Positions 1-40,739 are shown, counted from the first letter of the stretch. The stretch is DNA of 64,000 nucleotides from Nitrospiraceae bacterium (GCA_050246315.1 JBFWWG010000009.1:117812-181811), one strand, 5' to 3'. Notes: a model not told the origin generated them from the letters alone. Translations and numbers: made by a program.

Positions 1-221
1 TAGGTGACGATCCGGGGCGAGCGATCAACGACATGAAGATCGTCGGATTCCTTCAACTCGGCCCCCCAAGGAATGCCCTCGAAATCGCGCGGATCGTTGG
101 TCATGGTCACCGCCTGCGCGGCCAGGAACGACCAGAGCGAGGCGACCAGCGCCAGACCCAGGCCCGCGCGCCACCGTCGCCTCGGACGCTGCGTAGGATG
201 TACGTGGTTCGGGAGTGCCAC
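1..221 (-). CDS. Secreted hypothetical protein, 5' part only (runs off the window start); paralog of the adjacent gene
   Basis: Not in the ORF track. Manual translation from GTG at 221 (AGGAG upstream): MALPNHVHPTQRPRRRWRAGLGLALVASLWSFLAAQAVTMTNDPRDFEGIPWGAEL; signal-peptide-like, and MTNDPxxFxGIxWG is shared with 243..776. Confidence 0.75.
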   Translation of the reverse strand, partial: MALPNHVHPTQRPRRRWRAGLGLALVASLWSFLAAQAVTMTNDPRDFEGIPWGAELKESDDLHVVDRSPRIVT

Positions 222-242
222 GGTGCTCCTTGGACGAGTGGC

Positions 243-776
243 CTACTCGCCCGAATCGGTCAACGCATCGTTGAATCGAGGAGACAACACGCGGCTTTCG
301 ATAAAGACGAACCCGCGTCCGCTCTGCGCTTGGAAGGTGACGTTGATCTCCGTTTCCGGTCCTCTCCAATTAAACTGTTGGTTGAGCCCGCGGACCATCT
401 GTCCCGGAGTCTTGTCGAGGGCGCCGTATTGCTCCTCCAGGTACGCCATCACCTGCTGATGGGCGTCATTCCCGCGGTAGCGGATCGTCACGCGCGCAAA
501 ACGATCTTGCCAGGCGGTGAAGGTGACGCTCTCCACAGGAATGGTTCCCAGCAATGGAGGGCCGTTCTTGCACTGATAGTCGGCCACGTCCTTGCTCGAA
601 TAGGTCTGCTGCACATCCGACCGGCCGGCCAGCGCATCGCCCCAACGGATGCCGAGAAAGCTGCCGGGGTCGTTGGTCATCTCCGCAGCCCCAGCCGGGA
701 CGACGAGGAGGACGAGCCAGGCGAGTCCCAAGAGAACCGAGATGCGCTGAGCCCCTGTGTGTGAGGCCTGTAGCAT
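243..776 (-). CDS. Secreted hypothetical protein (start uncertain; ORF extends to 866)
   Basis: Hydrophobic signal ending in AGA-AE, then MTNDPGSFLGIRWG; paralogous to the neighbouring ORF. Confidence 0.75.
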   Translation of the reverse strand: MLQASHTGAQRISVLLGLAWLVLLVVPAGAAEMTNDPGSFLGIRWGDALAGRSDVQQTYSSKDVADYQCKNGPPLLGTIPVESVTFTAWQDRFARVTIRYRGNDAHQQVMAYLEEQYGALDKTPGQMVRGLNQQFNWRGPETEINVTFQAQSGRGFVFIESRVLSPRFNDALTDSGE

Positions 777-846
777 GGCGAACGCTAGCACGGTCGGCCC
801 GATCCGCGCAACGGACCGACGGGTGTGGAGGAGCACGGCGTAGGCA

Positions 847-882
847 TGACGATTGAGAATCGTCAAAGGGCTTGGCTATAAT
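847..882 (+). promoter_or_regulatory. Putative sigma70 promoter of the lipid operon, overlapped by an inverted repeat
   Basis: TTGAGA(853)-18 bp-TATAAT(877); TGACGATT-gag-AATCGTCA (847-865) covers the -35. Confidence 0.55.
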
Positions 883-910: not shown

Positions 911-1426
911 ATGACCGACGGCAACCAAATGATCGAGAGCGATGTCTTCGTCCAGGCGCTCCAAGAGATCGGAATCGAATTTTTTACCGGTGTGCCGGAC
1001 TCTATTCTCGGCGGAATCATCGAAACCCTGATGGAGCGGCGCTTGTATGTGCCGGCCACGCGTGAGGATGAAGCGCTGGCCATGGCGGCCGGGGCTTATA
1101 TGGCGGGGAAGGTCCCGGCCGTCTTGATGCAGAACTCAGGGCTGGGGACCTCGCTGAACACGCTGATCTCGTTGAATCTGATCTATCAGCAGCCCTGCGT
1201 GTTGATCGTGTCATGGCGCGGCTTTCAGGGGAAGGATGCGCCGGAGCATCTGGTGATGGGGCAAACCATGCCGCAGCTCCTGGATTTGATGAAGATACCC
1301 CACCGGACGCTGTCCGCCGGCACATTTGCCGACGACCTGCGTTGGACGGCCGAAACCTTCATGAAGCAGCAGATCCCCCTGGCCCTGATCATCAAGAAGG
1401 GCGTCATCAAGAGTTTGCATCCGTGA
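911..1426 (+). CDS. TPP-dependent phosphonopyruvate/sulfopyruvate decarboxylase, alpha subunit
   Basis: FFTGVPDS, TREDEALAMAAG, LMQNSGLG, SWRG..G.DAPEH motifs typical of the Ppd/ComD N-terminal domain; GAGGGG RBS before ATG 911. Confidence 0.9.
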   Translation: MTDGNQMIESDVFVQALQEIGIEFFTGVPDSILGGIIETLMERRLYVPATREDEALAMAAGAYMAGKVPAVLMQNSGLGTSLNTLISLNLIYQQPCVLIVSWRGFQGKDAPEHLVMGQTMPQLLDLMKIPHRTLSAGTFADDLRWTAETFMKQQIPLALIIKKGVIKSLHP

Positions 1427-1453
1427 GTGGGATCACAGAATGAGAGACCACCT

Positions 1454-2038
1454 ATGACACTCAGACCGGAACAAGGGGCCATGCAGAGCCGCGCGCGAGC
1501 CATGGAAGCCTTGCTAGAACTGCTGACCGATCAACCGGTCATTATCTGCAACGGATTTCCCTCCCGCGAGGCCTTCACGATCGCAGACCGGCCCACACAC
1601 TTCTACATGATCGGGTCCATGGGCGTTGCCGCCGCCATCGGGTTGGGTGTGGCCCTCGCGAAGCCCCAGAAAAAGGTCGTCGTGTTCGACGGCGACGGCA
1701 ACGTTCTGATGGGAATGGGCACACTCGCGACGGTCGGCGCGACCAGACCGAAAAATCTTGTCCATGTCGTGTTCGACAACGAAGTCTACGGCAGTACGGG
1801 CAATCAGCCGACTTATTCTCGGCTGGTCCGGCTGGATCTCGTGGCCAAGGCCGCGGGCTATGTCCATGTCGAGCGGGTAATCGAACGCGAGGACTTGGTG
1901 TATGAGTTCAAGGAGATGCTCGGTAAAGACGGGCCGAGCTTCCTGCTCGTGAAGGTCAACGAATGGGTGGAGGACGTCGGACGGGTTCTGCACGATCCTC
2001 CCGAGATCACGCAACGGTTCAAGAAGGCGATCGCATGA
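1454..2038 (+). CDS. TPP-dependent phosphonopyruvate/sulfopyruvate decarboxylase, beta subunit
   Basis: NGFPSRE, FYMIGSMG, DGDGNVLMGMG...DN TPP/Mg motif, STGNQPT; alternative start 1427. Confidence 0.9.
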   Translation: MTLRPEQGAMQSRARAMEALLELLTDQPVIICNGFPSREAFTIADRPTHFYMIGSMGVAAAIGLGVALAKPQKKVVVFDGDGNVLMGMGTLATVGATRPKNLVHVVFDNEVYGSTGNQPTYSRLVRLDLVAKAAGYVHVERVIEREDLVYEFKEMLGKDGPSFLLVKVNEWVEDVGRVLHDPPEITQRFKKAIA

Positions 2039-2139
2039 CGTCAATCGTCAAGCGTCATTCGTCAACAGTAAGGCGAGATCATTATGGTGCTGATTCCAGC
2101 GGTCACCCTCGATTGACGAGTGACCAATGACGATTGACG
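2039..2139. repeat. Inverted array of heptamer repeats (4x CGTCAAN ... 4x ANTGACG)
   Basis: CGTCAAT CGTCAAG CGTCATT CGTCAAC (2039-2066) and ATTGACG AGTGACC AATGACG ATTGACG (2112-2139). Confidence 0.8.
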
Positions 2140-2149
2140 GAGGTTTCCT

Positions 2150-3244
2150 GTGATCCTACTGAATCCCGGTCCAGTCAACGTGTCCGAACGAGTCCGGCAG
2201 GCCCTGCATCGGCCGGATCTGTGCCACCGCGAGCGCGAGTTCACCGACCTGTTGCATCGTATCCAGGACAAGCTACTGAAGGCATTTGTGCCGGGCGCGG
2301 AGCACGACTACACCGCAGCCATCATCACGGGGTCCGGAACCTCGGCGGTGGAGGCCGCGATCGGATCGGCTCTCCCGCAAGGCAAGCGTTCTATGGTGAT
2401 CAATAACGGCGTGTACGGCGACCGCATGTCGCAGATGACGCTGACCCACCGGATGGGTGTCCCGGACTTGAAGCTTGATTGGGGAAAGCGCCCCGACCCG
2501 GAGGTTGTGAGACTCGCCCTGCGGCAGCATCAAGAAGTCCACCTGGTGGCGATGGTACACCACGAGACGACGCTGGGACTGGTCAACCCGGCGAAGGAGA
2601 TCGCCGACGTGGTTGACAGTCAGAACCGCGTGTTCATGCTCGATGCCGTCAGCAGCTTGGCCGGTGACCCATTGGATATCGCCGGCTCCCACATCTATCT
2701 GGTGGCCGGCACTTCGGGAAAATGCATCCAAGGGTTCCCGGGCGTCTCGTTCGTCCTCATCCGGCGCGGATTCTTGCAGCGCATGCGGAGCTACCCTCGG
2801 AAATCCTGGTACCTGCACCTGCCCCACTATCTGGACGATGAAGGTCGGCCGACGGTGCCCTTCACCCCCGCGGTGCAGGTCTATTATGCGTTCGACGAGG
2901 CCCTGTCCGAGCTGTTGGAGGAAGGGGTGCCGAAGCGGATCGAGCGGTATAAGCGTGCCGCGAAGCTGATTCGAGACCGGATGAAGACGCTCGGTCTCAA
3001 ACCGGTGGTGCCGCCGGAGTTTCAGTCAAACACGCTGACCGCCTACCACCTGCCGGAGGGCCTGAGCTACGATCTGTTACATGACCGCCTCAAAGAGCGG
3101 GGCTACGTGATCTATGCCGGTCAAGGCCAGCTCGAGTCCAAGATTTTCCGCGTGGCCAACATGGGGGTCTTGTCGGCACAAGACCTGGAAGGGTTTCTGG
3201 CCGCCTTTCAGGAGGTGCTGGAACAGGCAGCGGTGTCTCGTTGA
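2150..3244 (+). CDS. PLP class V aminotransferase, 2-aminoethylphosphonate transaminase-like (PhnW/AepZ family)
   Basis: LLNPGP, DLCHRE, GSGT..VE, NGVYG.RM, VHHETTLG..NP, DAVSS, SGKCIQGFPG (PLP lysine), PFTP, GYVIYAGQG, FRVANMG. Confidence 0.88.
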   Translation: MILLNPGPVNVSERVRQALHRPDLCHREREFTDLLHRIQDKLLKAFVPGAEHDYTAAIITGSGTSAVEAAIGSALPQGKRSMVINNGVYGDRMSQMTLTHRMGVPDLKLDWGKRPDPEVVRLALRQHQEVHLVAMVHHETTLGLVNPAKEIADVVDSQNRVFMLDAVSSLAGDPLDIAGSHIYLVAGTSGKCIQGFPGVSFVLIRRGFLQRMRSYPRKSWYLHLPHYLDDEGRPTVPFTPAVQVYYAFDEALSELLEEGVPKRIERYKRAAKLIRDRMKTLGLKPVVPPEFQSNTLTAYHLPEGLSYDLLHDRLKERGYVIYAGQGQLESKIFRVANMGVLSAQDLEGFLAAFQEVLEQAAVSR

Positions 3245-3963
3245 AGGCCGTCATCCTCGCCGCCGGTATCGGCAAGCGGCTCTGGGACATTACGCAGCAC
3301 CGACCCAAATGTTTGATCGAGTTCGCCGGCAAGAGCCTTCTCGTTCGCCATCTGGAACACCTGGCCTCCCAGGGTGTGCAGCGGGCCACCGTGGTCGTCG
3401 GCTACAAGCAGGAGATGATTCGGAACGCCATTGGAACAGTTCATGCGGGAGTGGATCTGACGTATCTCGTCAATGACCAGTATCACCGCGGGAGCATCTC
3501 CTCGCTGTGGTTGGCGCGAACGGAGTTCGACGACGATGCGATCGTGATGGATGCCGACGTGTTGTACCATCGAGATATCATGAAGCGGCTGATCCACTCG
3601 CCCTATGCGAACTGTTTGTTAATGGACGAGACGGTCGTCCAGCAGGGCGAAGAGTGCATGGTGGTCGTGCGGGGAGGGCGGGTGATTGCGCTCACGAAGC
3701 GGGTCCCTTCCGTGTATGATTATGCGGGGGAAGGCGTCGGTTTTCTCAAGGTTGGCCGCCAGGACGCGGAGCACCTGGTCGGCTCGCTGCGGGCGCACAT
3801 CGATCGAGGTGCCTGGGAGATGGAATATGAAGACGGGCTGCTCGAATTTTTTGACCGGGTCCGCGTGGGCCACGAAAAAATCGGTGGGCTGCCCTGGACC
3901 GAGATCGACTTCCCGGAGGACGTGACCCGTGCGGAACGGGAAATCCTGCCGAAGCTGGACTAA
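3241..3963 (+). CDS. Phosphocholine/phosphonate cytidylyltransferase family NTP transferase (LicC/PntC-like)
   Basis: AVILAAGIGKRL..PKCL, VVGYK, MDADV, GEGVG, EYED, WTEIDFPED; overlaps the aminotransferase stop. Confidence 0.88.
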   Translation: MKAVILAAGIGKRLWDITQHRPKCLIEFAGKSLLVRHLEHLASQGVQRATVVVGYKQEMIRNAIGTVHAGVDLTYLVNDQYHRGSISSLWLARTEFDDDAIVMDADVLYHRDIMKRLIHSPYANCLLMDETVVQQGEECMVVVRGGRVIALTKRVPSVYDYAGEGVGFLKVGRQDAEHLVGSLRAHIDRGAWEMEYEDGLLEFFDRVRVGHEKIGGLPWTEIDFPEDVTRAEREILPKLD

Positions 3964-4017
3964 GCCACTCGGTCGCGTTAGAGTGCCGAAAGACAGGCCG
4001 ACCCTGGATACGGAACG

Positions 4018-5517
4018 ATGAGTCAGAGTGCGCTGCAACGCTTTGCCCAGACCCGAGAACTGACCTCCGCGATTGTGGTGACGGCGCGCAACGTCTTCAC
4101 CTCCACGCCCGTCTCAGTCCACACCGGCATCAGCCCGCTCACCCGAATCGCCGGCGTGACGATCTTTCAGCGCGGCATCCTGACCCTGCAGCGGGCCGGC
4201 GTGAACCAGATTTTTGTGTTGGCGGGTGACGAAGCGGAAACGCTCAAAGCGGTCGTACGCGACGGGCCGCCGATCACGGCGGGCATCCGGTGGATTCCGG
4301 TCCGGGAGTTCCCGCTCGACGACCCCCGGACATGGGAAACACTGGCGGCCGACGCCAAAGGCGCCTGCCTCGTGATTGGGCCGCAGGCCGCTTTTTCGCG
4401 AAACCTGATCGAAACGTTGCGTGGCAAGGGGCCGATCGAGGACCTCCTGCTCGTGTTGCAGCCCGACGAGCGCCATCGGACCGCGCCTGGTCGTTCCGAT
4501 CGTGCCGATCGCGTGTTGCCGACGAAACGGGATCGTCTGGCTCGATTGGCTGCCATCGGGTTGGGCGGAGAACGAGAGATGCGCGAAGCCCGTTCCGGAC
4601 GCGTCGCGGCCGAGGTACTCGTTCTGCCCGCCGGTCTACTTTCAAACGGACATTCTTTCGTCGATGCCCTGCTTGCTCAATCAGGGGAGGAACACCGAGG
4701 GGATGGCGAGCCGCTCCTGTCCCGACTCGTCGGGTTGGCAGCGGCAGAACGACGCATTCAGGTTGTTGAAGCGGCGCGGGATGCCAACCTCTGGGCGAGG
4801 GACATTCACGACGAACGGGACGCGTCGGCGGTCGAGCGGGATCTCTATCGCTCCTTTAAGAACCATTCCGAAGGGTTCATCGATCGGTATTTTAATCGGA
4901 AGCTTTCTCCATTCTTCACCAAGCTCTTCTTAAAGCTGAAACTGAGCCCCAACGCGGTCACGGTACTGGCCACCCTGATCGGGCTGGCCGGCGCGGCTTC
5001 CTTCGGGATGGGGACATACGAGGCCGGTCTGCTGGGAGCCCTCCTGTTTCAATTGGCCGCGGTGATCGACTGTTGCGACGGCGAGGTGGCGAGGCTGACG
5101 TTCACAGAGTCCCCGTTGGGAGCCAAGCTCGATCTCGCTCTCGACAACGTGGTGCACATGGCGGTATTTGCCGGCATCGCCTACGGCGCCTATGAGACGC
5201 AGGATGCGAGCGGGGAGGCGTGGCTGTACCTGGCACTTGGCGCGGTGGCGGTCGTCTCCAATGCCCTGGCCTTCTGGCTGGTCACAAGGCTGACTGCGAA
5301 GCCGAGCGGGGCCATCCCGGGCTCAACCGCGCGGGCCAGATGGAAGGATTTTATTCTCAAGAACATCGCGACACGTGATTTTTCCATGATCGTGCTGCTC
5401 TTCGCCGTGATCGGTCGTCTGGATTGGTTCCTGCTCTTGGCGGTCATCGGATCGGCCTTCTTCGGTCTGGTGCTGACCTGGCTGGTTTTCTCGACCCGCT
5501 CCGCTCGTGCTTCTTAA
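4018..5517 (+). CDS. CDP-alcohol phosphotransferase with degenerate N-terminal NTP-transferase-like domain
   Basis: DRYFNRKLS, SPNAVT and DCCDGEVAR..ESPLGAKLDLALD (CDP-alcohol signature); multiple TM helices at the C-terminus. Confidence 0.85.
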   Translation: MSQSALQRFAQTRELTSAIVVTARNVFTSTPVSVHTGISPLTRIAGVTIFQRGILTLQRAGVNQIFVLAGDEAETLKAVVRDGPPITAGIRWIPVREFPLDDPRTWETLAADAKGACLVIGPQAAFSRNLIETLRGKGPIEDLLLVLQPDERHRTAPGRSDRADRVLPTKRDRLARLAAIGLGGEREMREARSGRVAAEVLVLPAGLLSNGHSFVDALLAQSGEEHRGDGEPLLSRLVGLAAAERRIQVVEAARDANLWARDIHDERDASAVERDLYRSFKNHSEGFIDRYFNRKLSPFFTKLFLKLKLSPNAVTVLATLIGLAGAASFGMGTYEAGLLGALLFQLAAVIDCCDGEVARLTFTESPLGAKLDLALDNVVHMAVFAGIAYGAYETQDASGEAWLYLALGAVAVVSNALAFWLVTRLTAKPSGAIPGSTARARWKDFILKNIATRDFSMIVLLFAVIGRLDWFLLLAVIGSAFFGLVLTWLVFSTRSARAS

Positions 5518-6511
5518 AATTACCCTCCTCGCCGTCGGGACCCTCACCCTGACGGCCCTCGTGTGGCACATTGGGCCGACCCGCATCCTGGATGCCGCCG
5601 GGCAAGTCGGGCCGCTCGGCCTGCTACTGGTGTTACTCCCGTCGCTGGTCATGTACCTGCTCGAAGCCTACGGTTGGAAATTGACCATGGGGCCCTATGC
5701 CGGGGCCGTTTCCTTTCCGCACCTGTTGGCCATCCGGACGGCCGGTGAAGTCGTCAACATGACCACGCCGACCGCCTATGTAGGCGGCGAGCCGCTCAAA
5801 GCCTATCTGCTCAAACGTGCAGAGGTCCCGTTCGTCGACGGATTGGCCTCGGTCGTGCTGGCGAAGACCCTGATGACGATCGCGCAGGTACTGTTCATCC
5901 TGTTAGGGCTGGTGATCGCGTTCTGGCTGCTCGGATCGGAAGGGTCCTCCGGGCAGATGGTGATGGCCTCCATCGTCAGTGTCGGCATCTTGGCGTTCGG
6001 CGTCGCCGGCTTCATCGCAGTGCAGCGATGGGGCCTATTCACCGGTGCGCTTGGGCTGTTGCGGAGAGTCAATCTCCGAGTGGCCTACCTCGAAGCTCGG
6101 GAAAGCAAGCTGCGCGAACTGGACCGGACGATCCTGAATTTCTACGCCAAGGATCGGCGGAATTTTCTCTGCTCCACGGGATTGTATTTCGGCGGCTGGC
6201 TCGCTGAGGCCGTGGAAGTCTACGTGATGCTGGCCTGCCTCGGCCTTCCCGTGACGGCTCTCGCGGCGCTCGCCATCGGATCGCTGTCGGCCTTCATCAA
6301 GGGCGGGACCTTCTTCATTCCCGGGAGCTTGGGCGCACAGGATGGAGGCAATCTCCTCCTGGTCACGGCGTTCGGCTACAGCGACGTGGCCGGCATCACC
6401 TTCGCTCTGCTGCGACGCTTCCGCGAGATCGTCTGGATCGGCATCGGTCTGGTATGCCTGGCCCTGTTGGATGGGCGGACGGTGGCAAGTCGAGGCGATC
6501 AATCAGGCTGA
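5507..6511 (+). CDS. Lysylphosphatidylglycerol synthase TM domain / flippase-like membrane protein
   Basis: Polytopic; VNMTTPT..VGGEPLK, IPGSLGAQDG, LLRRFRE motifs of the UPF0104/LPG_synthase_TM family. Confidence 0.8.
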   Translation: MLLKITLLAVGTLTLTALVWHIGPTRILDAAGQVGPLGLLLVLLPSLVMYLLEAYGWKLTMGPYAGAVSFPHLLAIRTAGEVVNMTTPTAYVGGEPLKAYLLKRAEVPFVDGLASVVLAKTLMTIAQVLFILLGLVIAFWLLGSEGSSGQMVMASIVSVGILAFGVAGFIAVQRWGLFTGALGLLRRVNLRVAYLEARESKLRELDRTILNFYAKDRRNFLCSTGLYFGGWLAEAVEVYVMLACLGLPVTALAALAIGSLSAFIKGGTFFIPGSLGAQDGGNLLLVTAFGYSDVAGITFALLRRFREIVWIGIGLVCLALLDGRTVASRGDQSG

Positions 6512-7038: not shown

Positions 7039-7710
7039 TCAGCGAATTTGGCGATGGGCGGGAGAGGAAGGCTTCGCCAGCCCGCGGTGCCACCGGCGTA
7101 AGTGAGGCAAGGTCGGCAGCCTCGTCTTTCGGTTGAAGAGATAGTTTTCGACCACACCAAAGAGACTGTAATCCACGAAGAGGGGGCGATCGGCAATCAG
7201 GAACGGTGACGATGCCAACAGGTTGTCGAGCGGTTTCAACAGTTCCTCGAATTGAGCACAGAGATATGTGCGGTGGCTCGTCCATTCCTGGAGACAGCCT
7301 CGTCCGAATTTCCGCTCCTTGTGCCGAACCACCATGACGCGCTCGACAAGGGGACGAGACGGGATCACGTAGGTGTCGTTCACCTTGAACCCGACCATTT
7401 CAAGATCATTTTCAATGTAGCGGGATAGGATGAGCTGCAAGCCTTCGAGTGCTTTTGGAAACAGATTCAGGTTGAAGCGGCGATCGAGATACCGTGCCAC
7501 CTCTTGCCCGAAATCCGTGACATCACACACTGCGTGCCTGCCATCGAGTACACAAGGCACCGTGTGGCCGCGACCGTTGGTGGCGCTGATTATTGAGGCC
7601 CGCTCGTGATAGGGAATGTTGCGCAGACGGAACGGGATGCCGTTCCGTTCAAGCATATGCCGCACCGCGATACAGAACGGCGACCAGGGAAATTGAATCA
7701 GCGTGAGCAT
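7039..7710 (-). CDS. Glutathione S-transferase family protein
   Basis: N-terminal WSPFC, TVP (cis-Pro) motif, ARYLD, C-terminal FLIADRPLFVDYSLFG...LRRW. Confidence 0.8.
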   Translation of the reverse strand: MLTLIQFPWSPFCIAVRHMLERNGIPFRLRNIPYHERASIISATNGRGHTVPCVLDGRHAVCDVTDFGQEVARYLDRRFNLNLFPKALEGLQLILSRYIENDLEMVGFKVNDTYVIPSRPLVERVMVVRHKERKFGRGCLQEWTSHRTYLCAQFEELLKPLDNLLASSPFLIADRPLFVDYSLFGVVENYLFNRKTRLPTLPHLRRWHRGLAKPSSPAHRQIR

Positions 7711-7796: not shown

Positions 7797-8813
7797 TCAT
7801 CCTGGAGACGTCCTCTGCGTGTTAAGGCCGGCGGTTTCGAGGACCGCTCGAACGGCCTCGATGACGAGCTCCGGCTGATCGAATTGAATGAAGTGGCTGC
7901 TCCGGTCGGCGAAGACTTGCCGGCTGTTGGTGGAGAGCTTCATGAGGTCCGCCTGTAGTTGAAGCCACATCTGCCGGAACCGCGCCATGTCCACGGTGGG
8001 CGGCATGTCGGGCCACCAGGTTGGTCCGGTGGCGGTGAGAATGGTCAACGGCAGATCACCGAGCGGGTCTGTGCGCTGGACTTGAATGCAGGTCTCCTCC
8101 AACGCGGAGCCTTCGTCGGCCATGGTCGCGAAATAGCGTGTTTGCGTCCATCCGGCTCGGAGCATGGGACGAATCTCGGGAGGCACCTTTTCTTCATGCT
8201 CGGCGAAGAGCGGCGGCAGGAGATCGAACGCTGTCAACAGTCGCGTGACGCCCAGTGATGTCACGGCGCCGATGATCGGGAACGCGATCTTGCCGGGCGC
8301 GACAAATTTGCGGAACTCTTCCTGTGCAAATTGACGCTCGTGTCCCGCATCGACCAGGACGATTCCCAGCACGTCCTTTGGATGAATCTGCCGATAGAGC
8401 CGGACAATGAAACCGCCGAGCGAATGGCCGACGAGGACATAGGGGCCGGCGATACCGGAGCGAGTGAGCAGGGTATGGAGCTCGTTGGCAATGCGCCGGC
8501 CGGTTCTCGGCGAAGGCCCCGATTCACTCCAGCCGAATCCCGCCCGATCATACGAACAGACCCGCGTGACCTTCGCGAGAGCCGGTTGGACGTTGCTCCA
8601 ATAGACCGACCAACCCAGACCCGATGCCTCCAAGATCACGGTGGGACTGCCCTCGCCCGTGCAGTAGAGATGGAGCTGATGCCCGCCGACGTCGATGAGA
8701 TCGCCGGGAGGCGGATGGCGCGCTTGATCGATCGCCGTACCGACGGCCTGATACCCCACGCCGATCAGCGCGAGCAGAAACAATCCGCCAAGCAGCCGAA
8801 TCAGCCAGCGCAT
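7797..8813 (-). CDS. Alpha/beta hydrolase with N-terminal membrane anchor
   Basis: YDRAGFGWS, GHSLGG nucleophile elbow, SSHFIQFDQP catalytic His. Confidence 0.9.
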   Translation of the reverse strand: MRWLIRLLGGLFLLALIGVGYQAVGTAIDQARHPPPGDLIDVGGHQLHLYCTGEGSPTVILEASGLGWSVYWSNVQPALAKVTRVCSYDRAGFGWSESGPSPRTGRRIANELHTLLTRSGIAGPYVLVGHSLGGFIVRLYRQIHPKDVLGIVLVDAGHERQFAQEEFRKFVAPGKIAFPIIGAVTSLGVTRLLTAFDLLPPLFAEHEEKVPPEIRPMLRAGWTQTRYFATMADEGSALEETCIQVQRTDPLGDLPLTILTATGPTWWPDMPPTVDMARFRQMWLQLQADLMKLSTNSRQVFADRSSHFIQFDQPELVIEAVRAVLETAGLNTQRTSPG

Positions 8814-40202: not shown

Positions 40203-40739
40203 ATGAATATCCCCAACAGTCTGACCACGCTGCGGATTTTGCTCATTCCCGTCTTTGTCGGTTTTCTCGTCTATGAACAGGTCGATCGAGCCCTGCTCGT
40301 GCTTGTGATCGCGGGATTGACGGACGCGCTGGATGGCACGGTGGCGCGGATCATCAACCAGCGGACGCGCCTTGGCGCGATCTTGGATCCGCTGGCGGAC
40401 AAGCTCCTCATGGTGTCTGGCTTTGTTGCCCTGGCGGCGTTGCATCTGATTCCATCCTGGGTGGCGATTTTGGTCGTCAGCCGCGACTTTATTCTGATTG
40501 TGGGGACGCTCGTCGCCCGGTTGACTGAATCGCCACTCGACATCACGCCCACCGTGCTGGGCAAGGGCACCACAGTGTTTCAACTCTCCTACCTGGTCCT
40601 GGTCCTGCTGTTTCGAGCCACGAGCCGGGATGTCGCGCTGCTCGACCCTCTCCTCTATACGACCGCTGCGGTGACCCTCGCCTCCGGGCTTCATTACCTG
40701 TACCGCGGCTTTCTGCGGGTCAGCACACGAGATATCTGA
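40203..40739 (+). CDS. CDP-alcohol phosphatidyltransferase (PgsA-like)
   Basis: NIPNSLT..R, DALDGTVAR...T.LGAILDPLADK. Confidence 0.92.
   Translation: MNIPNSLTTLRILLIPVFVGFLVYEQVDRALLVLVIAGLTDALDGTVARIINQRTRLGAILDPLADKLLMVSGFVALAALHLIPSWVAILVVSRDFILIVGTLVARLTESPLDITPTVLGKGTTVFQLSYLVLVLLFRATSRDVALLDPLLYTTAAVTLASGLHYLYRGFLRVSTRDI

Follow-up and report, generated by a model that had tools for sequence, protein, structure and literature searches.

A putative phosphonolipid-type operon of a Nitrospiraceae bacterium lies beside a gene for a PEP mutase-like fusion protein with a cysteine-containing motif

A 'Group 1 phosphonolipid' gene-cluster family was reportedly described by Yu and colleagues in 2013. 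Its core, also called 'Burkholderiales_CDP-OH', comprises in the available text of Li and Horsman (2022; PMC8942020) a fusion of phosphoenolpyruvate (PEP) mutase (PepM or Ppm) with PntC, the decarboxylase Ppd, the transaminase AEPT, another, stand-alone PntC and two genes of phospholipid type, one of them for a cytidine diphosphate (CDP)-alcohol transferase. Phosphonate producers have been identified by a mutase motif: a perfect EDKX5NS is required by Rice et al. (2019; PMC6697681), Li and Horsman (2022; PMC8942020), Acker (2022; PMC8931226) and the PMC12723261 survey in the accessible parts of these papers, and Rice et al. removed 22 fused proteins without the motif as presumed non-Ppm. Here we analyse a six-gene operon (positions 911-6511) with the same kinds of gene as the Group 1 core, found in a stretch of 64,000 nucleotides from a Nitrospiraceae bacterium (GCA_050246315.1, JBFWWG010000009.1:117812-181811; G000:C9:117812-181811 in our notation; hereafter the window), together with a PepM-like gene just beyond the left edge of that stretch. 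The genome of 4.39 Mb, in 30 contigs, is rated 100% complete, and the sources of near-identical proteins put it in Nitrospira. Judged from sequence, the operon is probably a Group 1 phosphonolipid cluster of a variant kind, with a mutase from a clade that selection by motif leaves out.

The original prediction, drawn from the window, had noted the absence of a pepM and offered two explanations: either the operon makes a phosphonolipid with the help of a pepM located elsewhere, or the decarboxylase uses another substrate. The absence is literally true of the window, and a six-frame translation of the whole genome holds no EDK.{5}NS pattern, but a PepM-like gene adjoins the window edge. The lack of a PEP mutase in the window is a window-edge artefact. 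The gene encodes P0001, a PepM-like/nucleotidyltransferase (NTase) fusion of 559 aa on the minus strand at G000:C9:115725-117404 (L006:13726-15405; window -2086 to -407 by extrapolation), and its start codon lies 408 bp to the left of the first base of the window. The gene is divergent from the operon, an arrangement that recurs in other Nitrospira genera, and has a promoter-like site of its own upstream. The first of the two explanations is thus essentially right, 'elsewhere' being the adjacent divergent gene beyond the edge, and no supply in trans, as then proposed, is needed.

The PepM domain of P0001 spans residues 7-276, with the motif EDNVYPKRCS at 111-120, and near residue 297 a MobA-like NTase domain begins. 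The domain matches PF13714 at 193.4 bits (cut-off 31.5, residues 7-251), its best family is the PEP mutase TIGR02320 (278 bits, followed by phosphonopyruvate hydrolase at 257 and PrpB at 206) and its best solved match is the PEP mutase 5UNC (E = 2e-83), with phosphonopyruvate hydrolase 2DUA second (E = 2.5e-68). The Nitrospira protein is named only 'isocitrate lyase/PEP mutase family protein' by NCBI and phosphoenolpyruvate phosphomutase by JGI. A genome-wide search with TIGR02320 and PF13714 finds three places, all outside the window: P0001 itself and two on contig C16. The full-length PEP_mutase match on C16 was rejected as a mutase; it is PrpB (TIGR02317, 381 bits vs. 354) in a prpD-prpB-prpC operon. 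In its fusion to an NTase and its coupling to Ppd, P0001 resembles about 60% of canonical Ppm enzymes (Rice et al., 2019; PMC6697681, as excerpted).

When P0001 is aligned to solved structures, its loop EDNVYPKRCS stands against EDKRFPKVNS in the Streptomyces PEP mutase (5UNC), EDKLFPKTNS in the Mytilus enzyme (1M1B) and EDKTFPKDTS in phosphonopyruvate hydrolase (2DUA); Lys116 and Asn122 are named here in Mytilus numbering, as read from the 1M1B alignment. P0001 is like the canonical PEP mutases (TIGR02320; 1M1B, 5UNC) in fold, in its best family and structure matches and in its Mg- and phosphoryl-binding residues. It is unlike them in having Asn for Lys116, Cys for Asn122 and three more class-specific residues (positions 44, 122 and 127 of the alignment). 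Positions 44, 113, 119, 122 and 127 are the only ones that separate 18 Cys-type from 83 canonical sequences. The ligands of Mg, substrate and phosphoryl group (D55, D82, E111, K117, S120, R156 and H187) are common to both types, D55, D82, E111, K117 and R156 being invariant in the comparison. S120, E158, H187 and N236 of the Cys type are found in 81-83 of the 83 canonical PepMs and in phosphonopyruvate hydrolase, and are absent from five lyase sequences. Phosphonopyruvate hydrolase, like P0001, is a member of the P-C branch that departs from the motif at Asn122; unlike P0001, it keeps Lys116, has Thr in place of the Cys, serves in catabolism and shows no coupling to a decarboxylase or an NTase. 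The methylisocitrate and isocitrate lyases (KRCGH; in this genome PrpB on C16) share with P0001 the Lys-Arg-Cys of the gating loop. They differ from it in the Gly-His after the Cys, in the lack of S120, E158, H187 and N236 and in their placement in methylcitrate-cycle operons.

The variant is conserved. EDNV[YF]PKRCS is found in all 121 sequences of a set in which P0001 is joined by its 120 closest homologues, none of them less than 79% identical, and because it is kept there and in 26 of 26 Nitrospirales orthologues with a readable motif we take it to be under selection, not a sequence error. Among 1.84 billion cluster representatives searched, the closest relatives of P0001 are all of Cys type; ED[NS]xxxPKxCS is present in 23 of the best 150 representatives, and canonical EDK..NS proteins come next at about 50% identity. 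A FastTree phylogeny was built from 140 of 156 sequences that align over at least 240 residues (16 fragments were left out, and relatives of P0001 are over-represented). It places all 83 canonical PepMs in one clade of 99 tips (SH-like support 0.79) from which Cys-type sequences are absent. All 18 of these fall outside it in four groups and a singleton, with a deep order that does not separate a grade from a clade. The Cys types (ED[NS]x[FY]PK[RKV]CS) may form a lineage of their own within the C-P branch, perhaps one that arose early and has kept the catalytic Cys of the lyases.

A further set of representatives carries EDNxxPKRNS (P0147, P0152, P0186, P0214, P0226 and others), with Asn122 kept and Lys116 lost. 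These proteins are mostly unfused, of about 300 aa, would fail an EDKX5NS filter and stand in the tree between the Cys types and the canonical clade. The G-loop AAGFEKQL of the fused NTase was considered as a further marker of the Cys type and rejected, the fused domains of canonical PepMs being equally divergent.

Forty-one Nitrospirales genomes, including the source genome, were compared. The Cys type with its motif read is present in 26, one of which (G032) has both types; two more (G003 and G019) have a partial orthologue without the motif region, 10 have only a canonical EDK..NS PepM-NTase fusion, and three have neither (G017, 76% complete; G036, 96%; G038, 94%). The beta subunit of the decarboxylase has a match in 38 of the 41 genomes (54-98% identity), with none found in G003, G036 and G039. 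Beta-subunit and transaminase matches are present in all 10 canonical-only genomes. Five of these were examined in detail: four (G012, G014, G021 and G031) have all six operon genes, 67-82% identical and within the same family, unlinked to the mutase, and the fifth (G030) has alpha, beta, transaminase and NTase, with a match to the C-terminal part only of the CDP-alcohol transferase. G036, which has no mutase, also has no decarboxylase match, and its transaminase match is at paralogue level only. It appears that in Nitrospirales mutases of both types can serve the same orthologous set of downstream genes, and the interchange therefore suggests that the Cys type feeds the same operon as canonical PepM.

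Two observations concern the canonical fusions of this order. In the small-genome family f2 (G031, L017:8277-11855; the layout of open reading frames (ORFs) at L019 of G037 is similar) an aldo/keto reductase and a protein of 361 aa without family match come after the canonical fusion, and the decarboxylase operon is far away. This locus may be a second phosphonate branch. In G021 an HNH endonuclease with homing-endonuclease repeats is located immediately downstream of the canonical PepM-NTase fusion (L014:10183-10887, plus strand).

Beyond this order the Cys type is widely distributed. A scan by motif pattern, with one genome per species, matched at least 120 stretches, and 80 loci were analysed. 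Among the matches listed, 79 of the 80 have a PepM homologue; the remaining motif match, L052, was discarded as due to chance, having no PepM homologue. Fifty-five loci are well flanked, with at least 5 kb on both sides. Among the matches listed, these 55 include 47 NTase fusions, and alpha and beta subunits lie within 6 kb in 45, a transaminase in 27, a second NTase in 35, a CDP-alcohol transferase in 20 and a flippase-like gene in 18. Outside Nitrospirota, again among the matches listed, alpha and beta lie within 6 kb in 41 of 57 loci and are co-directional and downstream in 39; these loci include kin that are not independent, and some are truncated. The carriers belong to at least eight groups besides Nitrospirota, namely Planctomycetota, Methylomirabilota/Rokubacteria, Myxococcota (including Sorangium cellulosum So ce56 and Minicystis rosea), Actinomycetota (unfused), Acidobacteriota, one Binatia, Thermodesulfobacteriota and archaea (Nitrosocosmicus). 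In each of five complete genomes with the Cys type it is the sole PepM-branch gene, since the other PF13714 matches are either KRCG lyases or more distant proteins. Every one of the five has a single beta homologue, which in two of them is not linked to the Cys-type gene. As the PepM-branch gene is coupled to the decarboxylase across phyla, we read the Cys type as feeding the decarboxylase.

The composition of the clusters varies between groups. Loci of Rokubacteria (L029, L031, L056, L076, L083), of Sorangium and Minicystis (L036, L055, L072) and of Nitrosocosmicus (L103) have fusion, alpha, beta and NTase, with no transaminase within 6 kb. The Rokubacteria loci and L103 also have a CDP-alcohol transferase, accompanied in L029, L031, L056 and L103 by a flippase-like gene; the myxobacterial loci have neither. 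At such transaminase-less loci the head group may differ from 2-aminoethylphosphonate (AEP), hydroxyethylphosphonate being one example. In Actinomycetota (L033, L045, L046, L057, L067, L077, L087, L098) the Cys motif occurs in a distant subgroup of unfused proteins that share 36-40% identity with P0001, where alpha and beta always come next and a transaminase is present in 7 of 8 loci, with no NTase or lipid genes nearby.

All six co-directional genes that the original prediction listed for the operon are confirmed by family matches, and ahead of them is a promoter-like TTGAGA-18-TATAAT on the plus strand at 853-882 (11 of 12 positions matched; two such sites in the scanned stretch vs. 0.5 expected from shuffles). 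GAGGGG and then an ATG at 911 follow the site; the frame is open from a TTG at 872. The first two genes, both on the plus strand as are the other four, encode the alpha subunit (911-1426, TPP_enzyme_N) and the beta subunit (1427-2038, TPP_enzyme_C) of a split phosphonopyruvate-decarboxylase-type enzyme. On the Ppd model TIGR03297 the alpha subunit covers positions 1-156 with 132.2 bits and the beta subunit positions 169-358 with 180.6 bits, and for this enzyme in two genes the rough sum is 312.8 bits against a cut-off of 312.5. On the sulphopyruvate decarboxylase (ComDE) models alpha scores 112.7 bits (TIGR03845, cut-off 147.95) and beta 187.8 (TIGR03846, cut-off 221.5), so that neither subunit reaches the cut-off. 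The third gene (2150-3244) encodes a class-V aminotransferase of AEP transaminase (AEPT/PhnW-AepZ) type, with TIGR03301 as best family (342.5 bits, below the cut-off of 360.8; full-length alignment, 2-356 of 364 residues).

The fourth gene (3241-3963) encodes a stand-alone PntC/LicC-like NTase, P0274 (NTP_transferase; G-loop LAAGIGKRL). Its best solved match is the PntC-AEPT fusion of Treponema denticola, 6PD1 (E = 1.7e-15, residues 2-238), which is AEP-specific according to the accessible text of Rice et al. (PMC6697681); LicC (1JYK) is second. As a LicC-like NTase that is closest to PntC and lies in a Ppm/Ppd/AEPT cluster, P0274 is a predicted PntC. The fifth gene (4018-5517) encodes P0272, a membrane protein of 499 aa that combines an NTase-like domain with a CDP-alcohol phosphotransferase (CDP-OH_P_transf, residues 310-449; PF01066, 38.8 bits vs. 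a cut-off of 22) with an intact DxxDGxxAR...G...D...D signature DCCDGEVARLTFTESPLGAKLDLALD. Like its best solved matches, AF2299 (4O6M, E = 5.5e-17) and IPCT-DIPPS (4MND, E = 1.4e-14), P0272 has an N-terminal cytoplasmic NTase-like domain ahead of the CDP-alcohol phosphotransferase. Unlike in IPCT/DIPPS, this domain of about 250 aa is degenerate, with the G-loop lost (AIVVTARNVF...), and the donor is probably cytidine monophosphate (CMP)-AEP, not CDP-inositol. The stand-alone NTase and the transferase resemble the two halves of IPCT/DIPPS (NF041135, 85.5 and 84.6 bits). The last gene (5507-6511) encodes a flippase-like membrane protein of the MprF-TM family (LPG_synthase_TM; PF03706, 104.5 bits; TIGR00374, 80.2 bits, cut-off 43.2), which is HpnL-like, scoring 164.2 bits on TIGR03476, below the cut-off of 195.65. 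HpnL is of unknown function in the available text of PMC12324291.

The Nitrospira cluster differs from Group 1 in that the mutase has EDNVYPKRCS and not EDKX5NS, Ppd is split into two genes and the mutase gene is divergent from the operon. The seven-gene core of Group 1 includes a 2-oxoglutarate/Fe(II) oxygenase, and none was found in the part scanned, which took in the genes of the window as far as 8813 and a selection of ORFs left of it; the remaining functions of that core are all represented. The lipid genes of Group 1 were compared with those of Nitrospira by their descriptions.

The best reading is probably a complete pathway to an AEP head group, akin to Group 1 phosphonolipid clusters, with a non-canonical PEP mutase as its first enzyme. 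From the gene identities, the conserved motif, the decarboxylase coupling and the interchange of mutase types we infer its catalytic steps, acceptor and flipping as follows. The Cys-type PepM-like domain would isomerize PEP, and it is likely that the product is phosphonopyruvate. The split alpha/beta thiamine pyrophosphate decarboxylase would convert this to phosphonoacetaldehyde, pulling the unfavourable mutase equilibrium forward, and the class-V transaminase would then form AEP. The PntC-like NTase, possibly together with the domain fused to the mutase, would activate it to CMP-AEP, and the AF2299/DIPPS-like CDP-alcohol phosphotransferase would pass the aminoethylphosphonyl group on to an alcohol in the membrane, of which diacylglycerol is the simplest candidate, with release of CMP. 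The MprF-TM-like protein would carry the product across the membrane.

Public sequencing runs also touch the locus. Twenty are listed as holding part of it, 19 of them on record as RNA, and four were aligned to it. Contigs from RNA libraries cover the genes at 99-100% identity; carry-over of DNA is possible, and they lend weak support to transcription. In run X1 a contig of 1,688 nt covers L202:219-1887 with no differences, the PepM-like ORF being L202:226-1905, and a contig of 1,560 nt joins the beta subunit and the transaminase (L202:3789-5348). Run X8 was rejected as evidence of expression; its contigs of 10-15 kb, about 96% identical, come from a relative and perhaps from DNA carry-over.

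Several points weigh against the proposed pathway. The variant loop, with Asn for Lys116 and Cys for Asn122, lacks the diagnostic EDKxxxxxNS. According to Liu and colleagues (2004), Asn122 of the Mytilus PEP mutase is said to surround the transferring phosphoryl group, and its replacement to cost much activity; roles of Lys120 and Leu124 are reported there as well. The TIGR02320 score of 278 bits is below the cut-off of 319.55, and the Cys is placed at the catalytic Cys of the C-C lyases (KRCGH), so that a lyase- or hydrolase-like chemistry is conceivable. Among the matches listed, 10 of the 55 well-flanked loci, mostly from Binatia, have no decarboxylase nearby, and many clusters outside Nitrospira have no transaminase within 6 kb; AEP need not be the universal product. 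A search of the literature, which did not extend to subscription journals or to other Cys-type-only organisms, found no report of phosphonate from Nitrospira or Sorangium. The contigs from RNA libraries are no proof of transcription, and diacylglycerol is a putative acceptor of the last step.

This last point leads to the alternative that survives best, a pathway that is the same up to CMP-AEP and ends on a hopanoid polyol, glycolipid, ceramide or polyprenol-linked glycan instead of diacylglycerol. We consider such an acceptor possible, if doubtful. AF2299 and IPCT-DIPPS use soluble CDP-alcohol donors with acceptors other than diacylglycerol, the product of the last gene is HpnL-like (though at 164 bits against a cut-off of 196), and in the available text of PMC8942020 no phosphonolipid has been characterized even from canonical Group 1 clusters. 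Against it, neither the operon genes nor the scanned flanking ORFs include hopanoid or glycan genes. The simplest analogue of the transfer step is the eukaryotic CDP-ethanolamine/CMP-AEP:diacylglycerol transferase.

A second alternative concerns the mutase. The Cys-type enzyme might not be isofunctional with PepM, the Cys acting as acid/base on another 3-substituted pyruvate or in a hydrolase- or lyase-like reaction, and the head group would then not be AEP. We regard this as unlikely, and it is likewise improbable that the enzyme, in place of converting PEP to phosphonopyruvate, carries out a related, undescribed reaction. Cys119 does align with the Cys that is catalytic in the KRCG(H) lyases, the four lyases in the alignment also show F44, Y122 and R127 among them, the Cys types stand outside the clade of all 83 canonical PepMs and the family score is below the cut-off. 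The position of Asn122 does tune the chemistry, because Thr at this place marks phosphonopyruvate hydrolase (EDKTFPKDTS). However, the orthologous six-gene operon of Nitrospirales (67-82% identity) runs with either fusion type, and if the substrates differed, the five enzymes further down would all have to accept one as well as the other. The residues that handle the phosphoryl group (H187, R156 and S120) are retained, the NTase step requires a phosphate or phosphonate nucleophile, and the clusters have no conserved extra gene able to supply another substrate. Formation of phosphonopyruvate by the Cys-type enzyme is preferred.

The other branch of the original prediction, in which the decarboxylase acts on 3-phosphohydroxypyruvate to give glycolaldehyde phosphate, then phosphoethanolamine and CDP-ethanolamine, a Kennedy-like route to phosphatidylethanolamine that bypasses phosphatidylserine, found no support and is highly improbable. 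The chemistry is formally possible, and decarboxylase and transaminase score slightly below curated cut-offs. However, a PepM-branch gene is adjacent here and coupled to the decarboxylase in many phyla, and the best family and solved matches of the downstream enzymes are Ppd, AEPT and PntC. G036, without a PepM-branch gene, is also without a decarboxylase match, with a transaminase at paralogue level only. Furthermore, the genome has neighbouring genes for pssA (124.9 bits vs. 107) and psd (263.9 vs. 225), both above the curated cut-offs, so that synthesis of phosphatidylethanolamine needs no bypass.

A ComDE-type sulphopyruvate decarboxylase in a pathway to taurine or a sulphonate head group is barely credible, even though the beta subunit scores marginally higher on TIGR03846 (187.8 vs. 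180.6 bits) and the split architecture is that of ComDE: both ComDE models stay below cut-off, alpha is higher on Ppd (132.2 vs. 112.7) and the rough sum of the two subunits (about 312.8 bits) is at the Ppd cut-off of 312.5, the same split enzyme occurs alongside canonical PepM in 10 Nitrospirales genomes, so that the split is no evidence for ComDE, the family matches for the scanned locus genes include no ComA, ComB, ComC or cysteate route, and a sulphonate would be a poor substrate for the cytidylyltransferase/CDP-alcohol transferase pair. An arsenic analogue (arsenoenolpyruvate mutase of the bisenarsan pathway) was rejected, since the AroA-like synthase it requires is absent here; in the accessible text of PMC4943196 and PMC12159101 that pathway needs such a synthase, and BsnN/SLI_1097 figures as an enzyme of the phosphoglycerate mutase type.

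Upstream of the PepM-like gene and on the same strand are two tandem paralogous genes for small proteins of 207 and 185 aa, at window 243-866 (minus strand) and L006:15476-16033 (minus strand; window -336 to 221), which are kept there in 18 of 18 Nitrospira loci. The proteins have signal-peptide-like N-termini and share MTNDPxxFxGIxWG ... RVTIRY ... FNWxGPET, with no Pfam or NCBIfam match. A 293-aa ORF on the plus strand (window 3-764; extended, L006:15695-16576), Arg-rich and without family match, was rejected as lying in the wrong frame, because it is poorly conserved (30-40% identity) while the two minus-strand ORFs at the same place are kept in 18 of 18 loci. Directly downstream of the PepM-like gene are a HepT-like RNase (L006:12841-13305, minus strand) and an MntA-like nucleotidyltransferase (L006:13197-13826, minus strand) of a type VII toxin-antitoxin system, both below curated cut-offs. 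The operon is followed by genes for a glutathione S-transferase (GST)-like protein (7039-7710, minus strand) and an alpha/beta hydrolase (7797-8813, minus strand), with no sign of membership. The window holds a further CDP-OH_P_transf gene at 40203-40643 on the plus strand (G000:C9:158014-158454; 115.7 bits, in an open frame of 180 aa).

A literature search outside subscription journals found no paper on the Cys-type clade. The Cys type is a natural experiment on the roles that Asn122 and Lys116 play in PEP mutase, and it may stand between the C-C lyases and the C-P mutases as an intermediate. Whether Cys types form C-P bonds or run a related reaction, motif-based censuses of producers would have missed them either way. 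If they are functional mutases, the estimate that about 5% of genomes are phosphonate-producing would be too low, and the missed producers would include abundant nitrifiers and soil and groundwater phyla. Nitrospira is a main nitrite oxidizer of soils and wastewater plants. If the proposal is true, Nitrospira, Planctomycetota, Rokubacteria, Sorangium-type myxobacteria, Acidobacteriota and the ammonia-oxidizing archaeon Nitrosocosmicus would be added to the sources of C-P compounds, and the finding would bear on the origin of such compounds in the environment and on the surface chemistry of Nitrospira.

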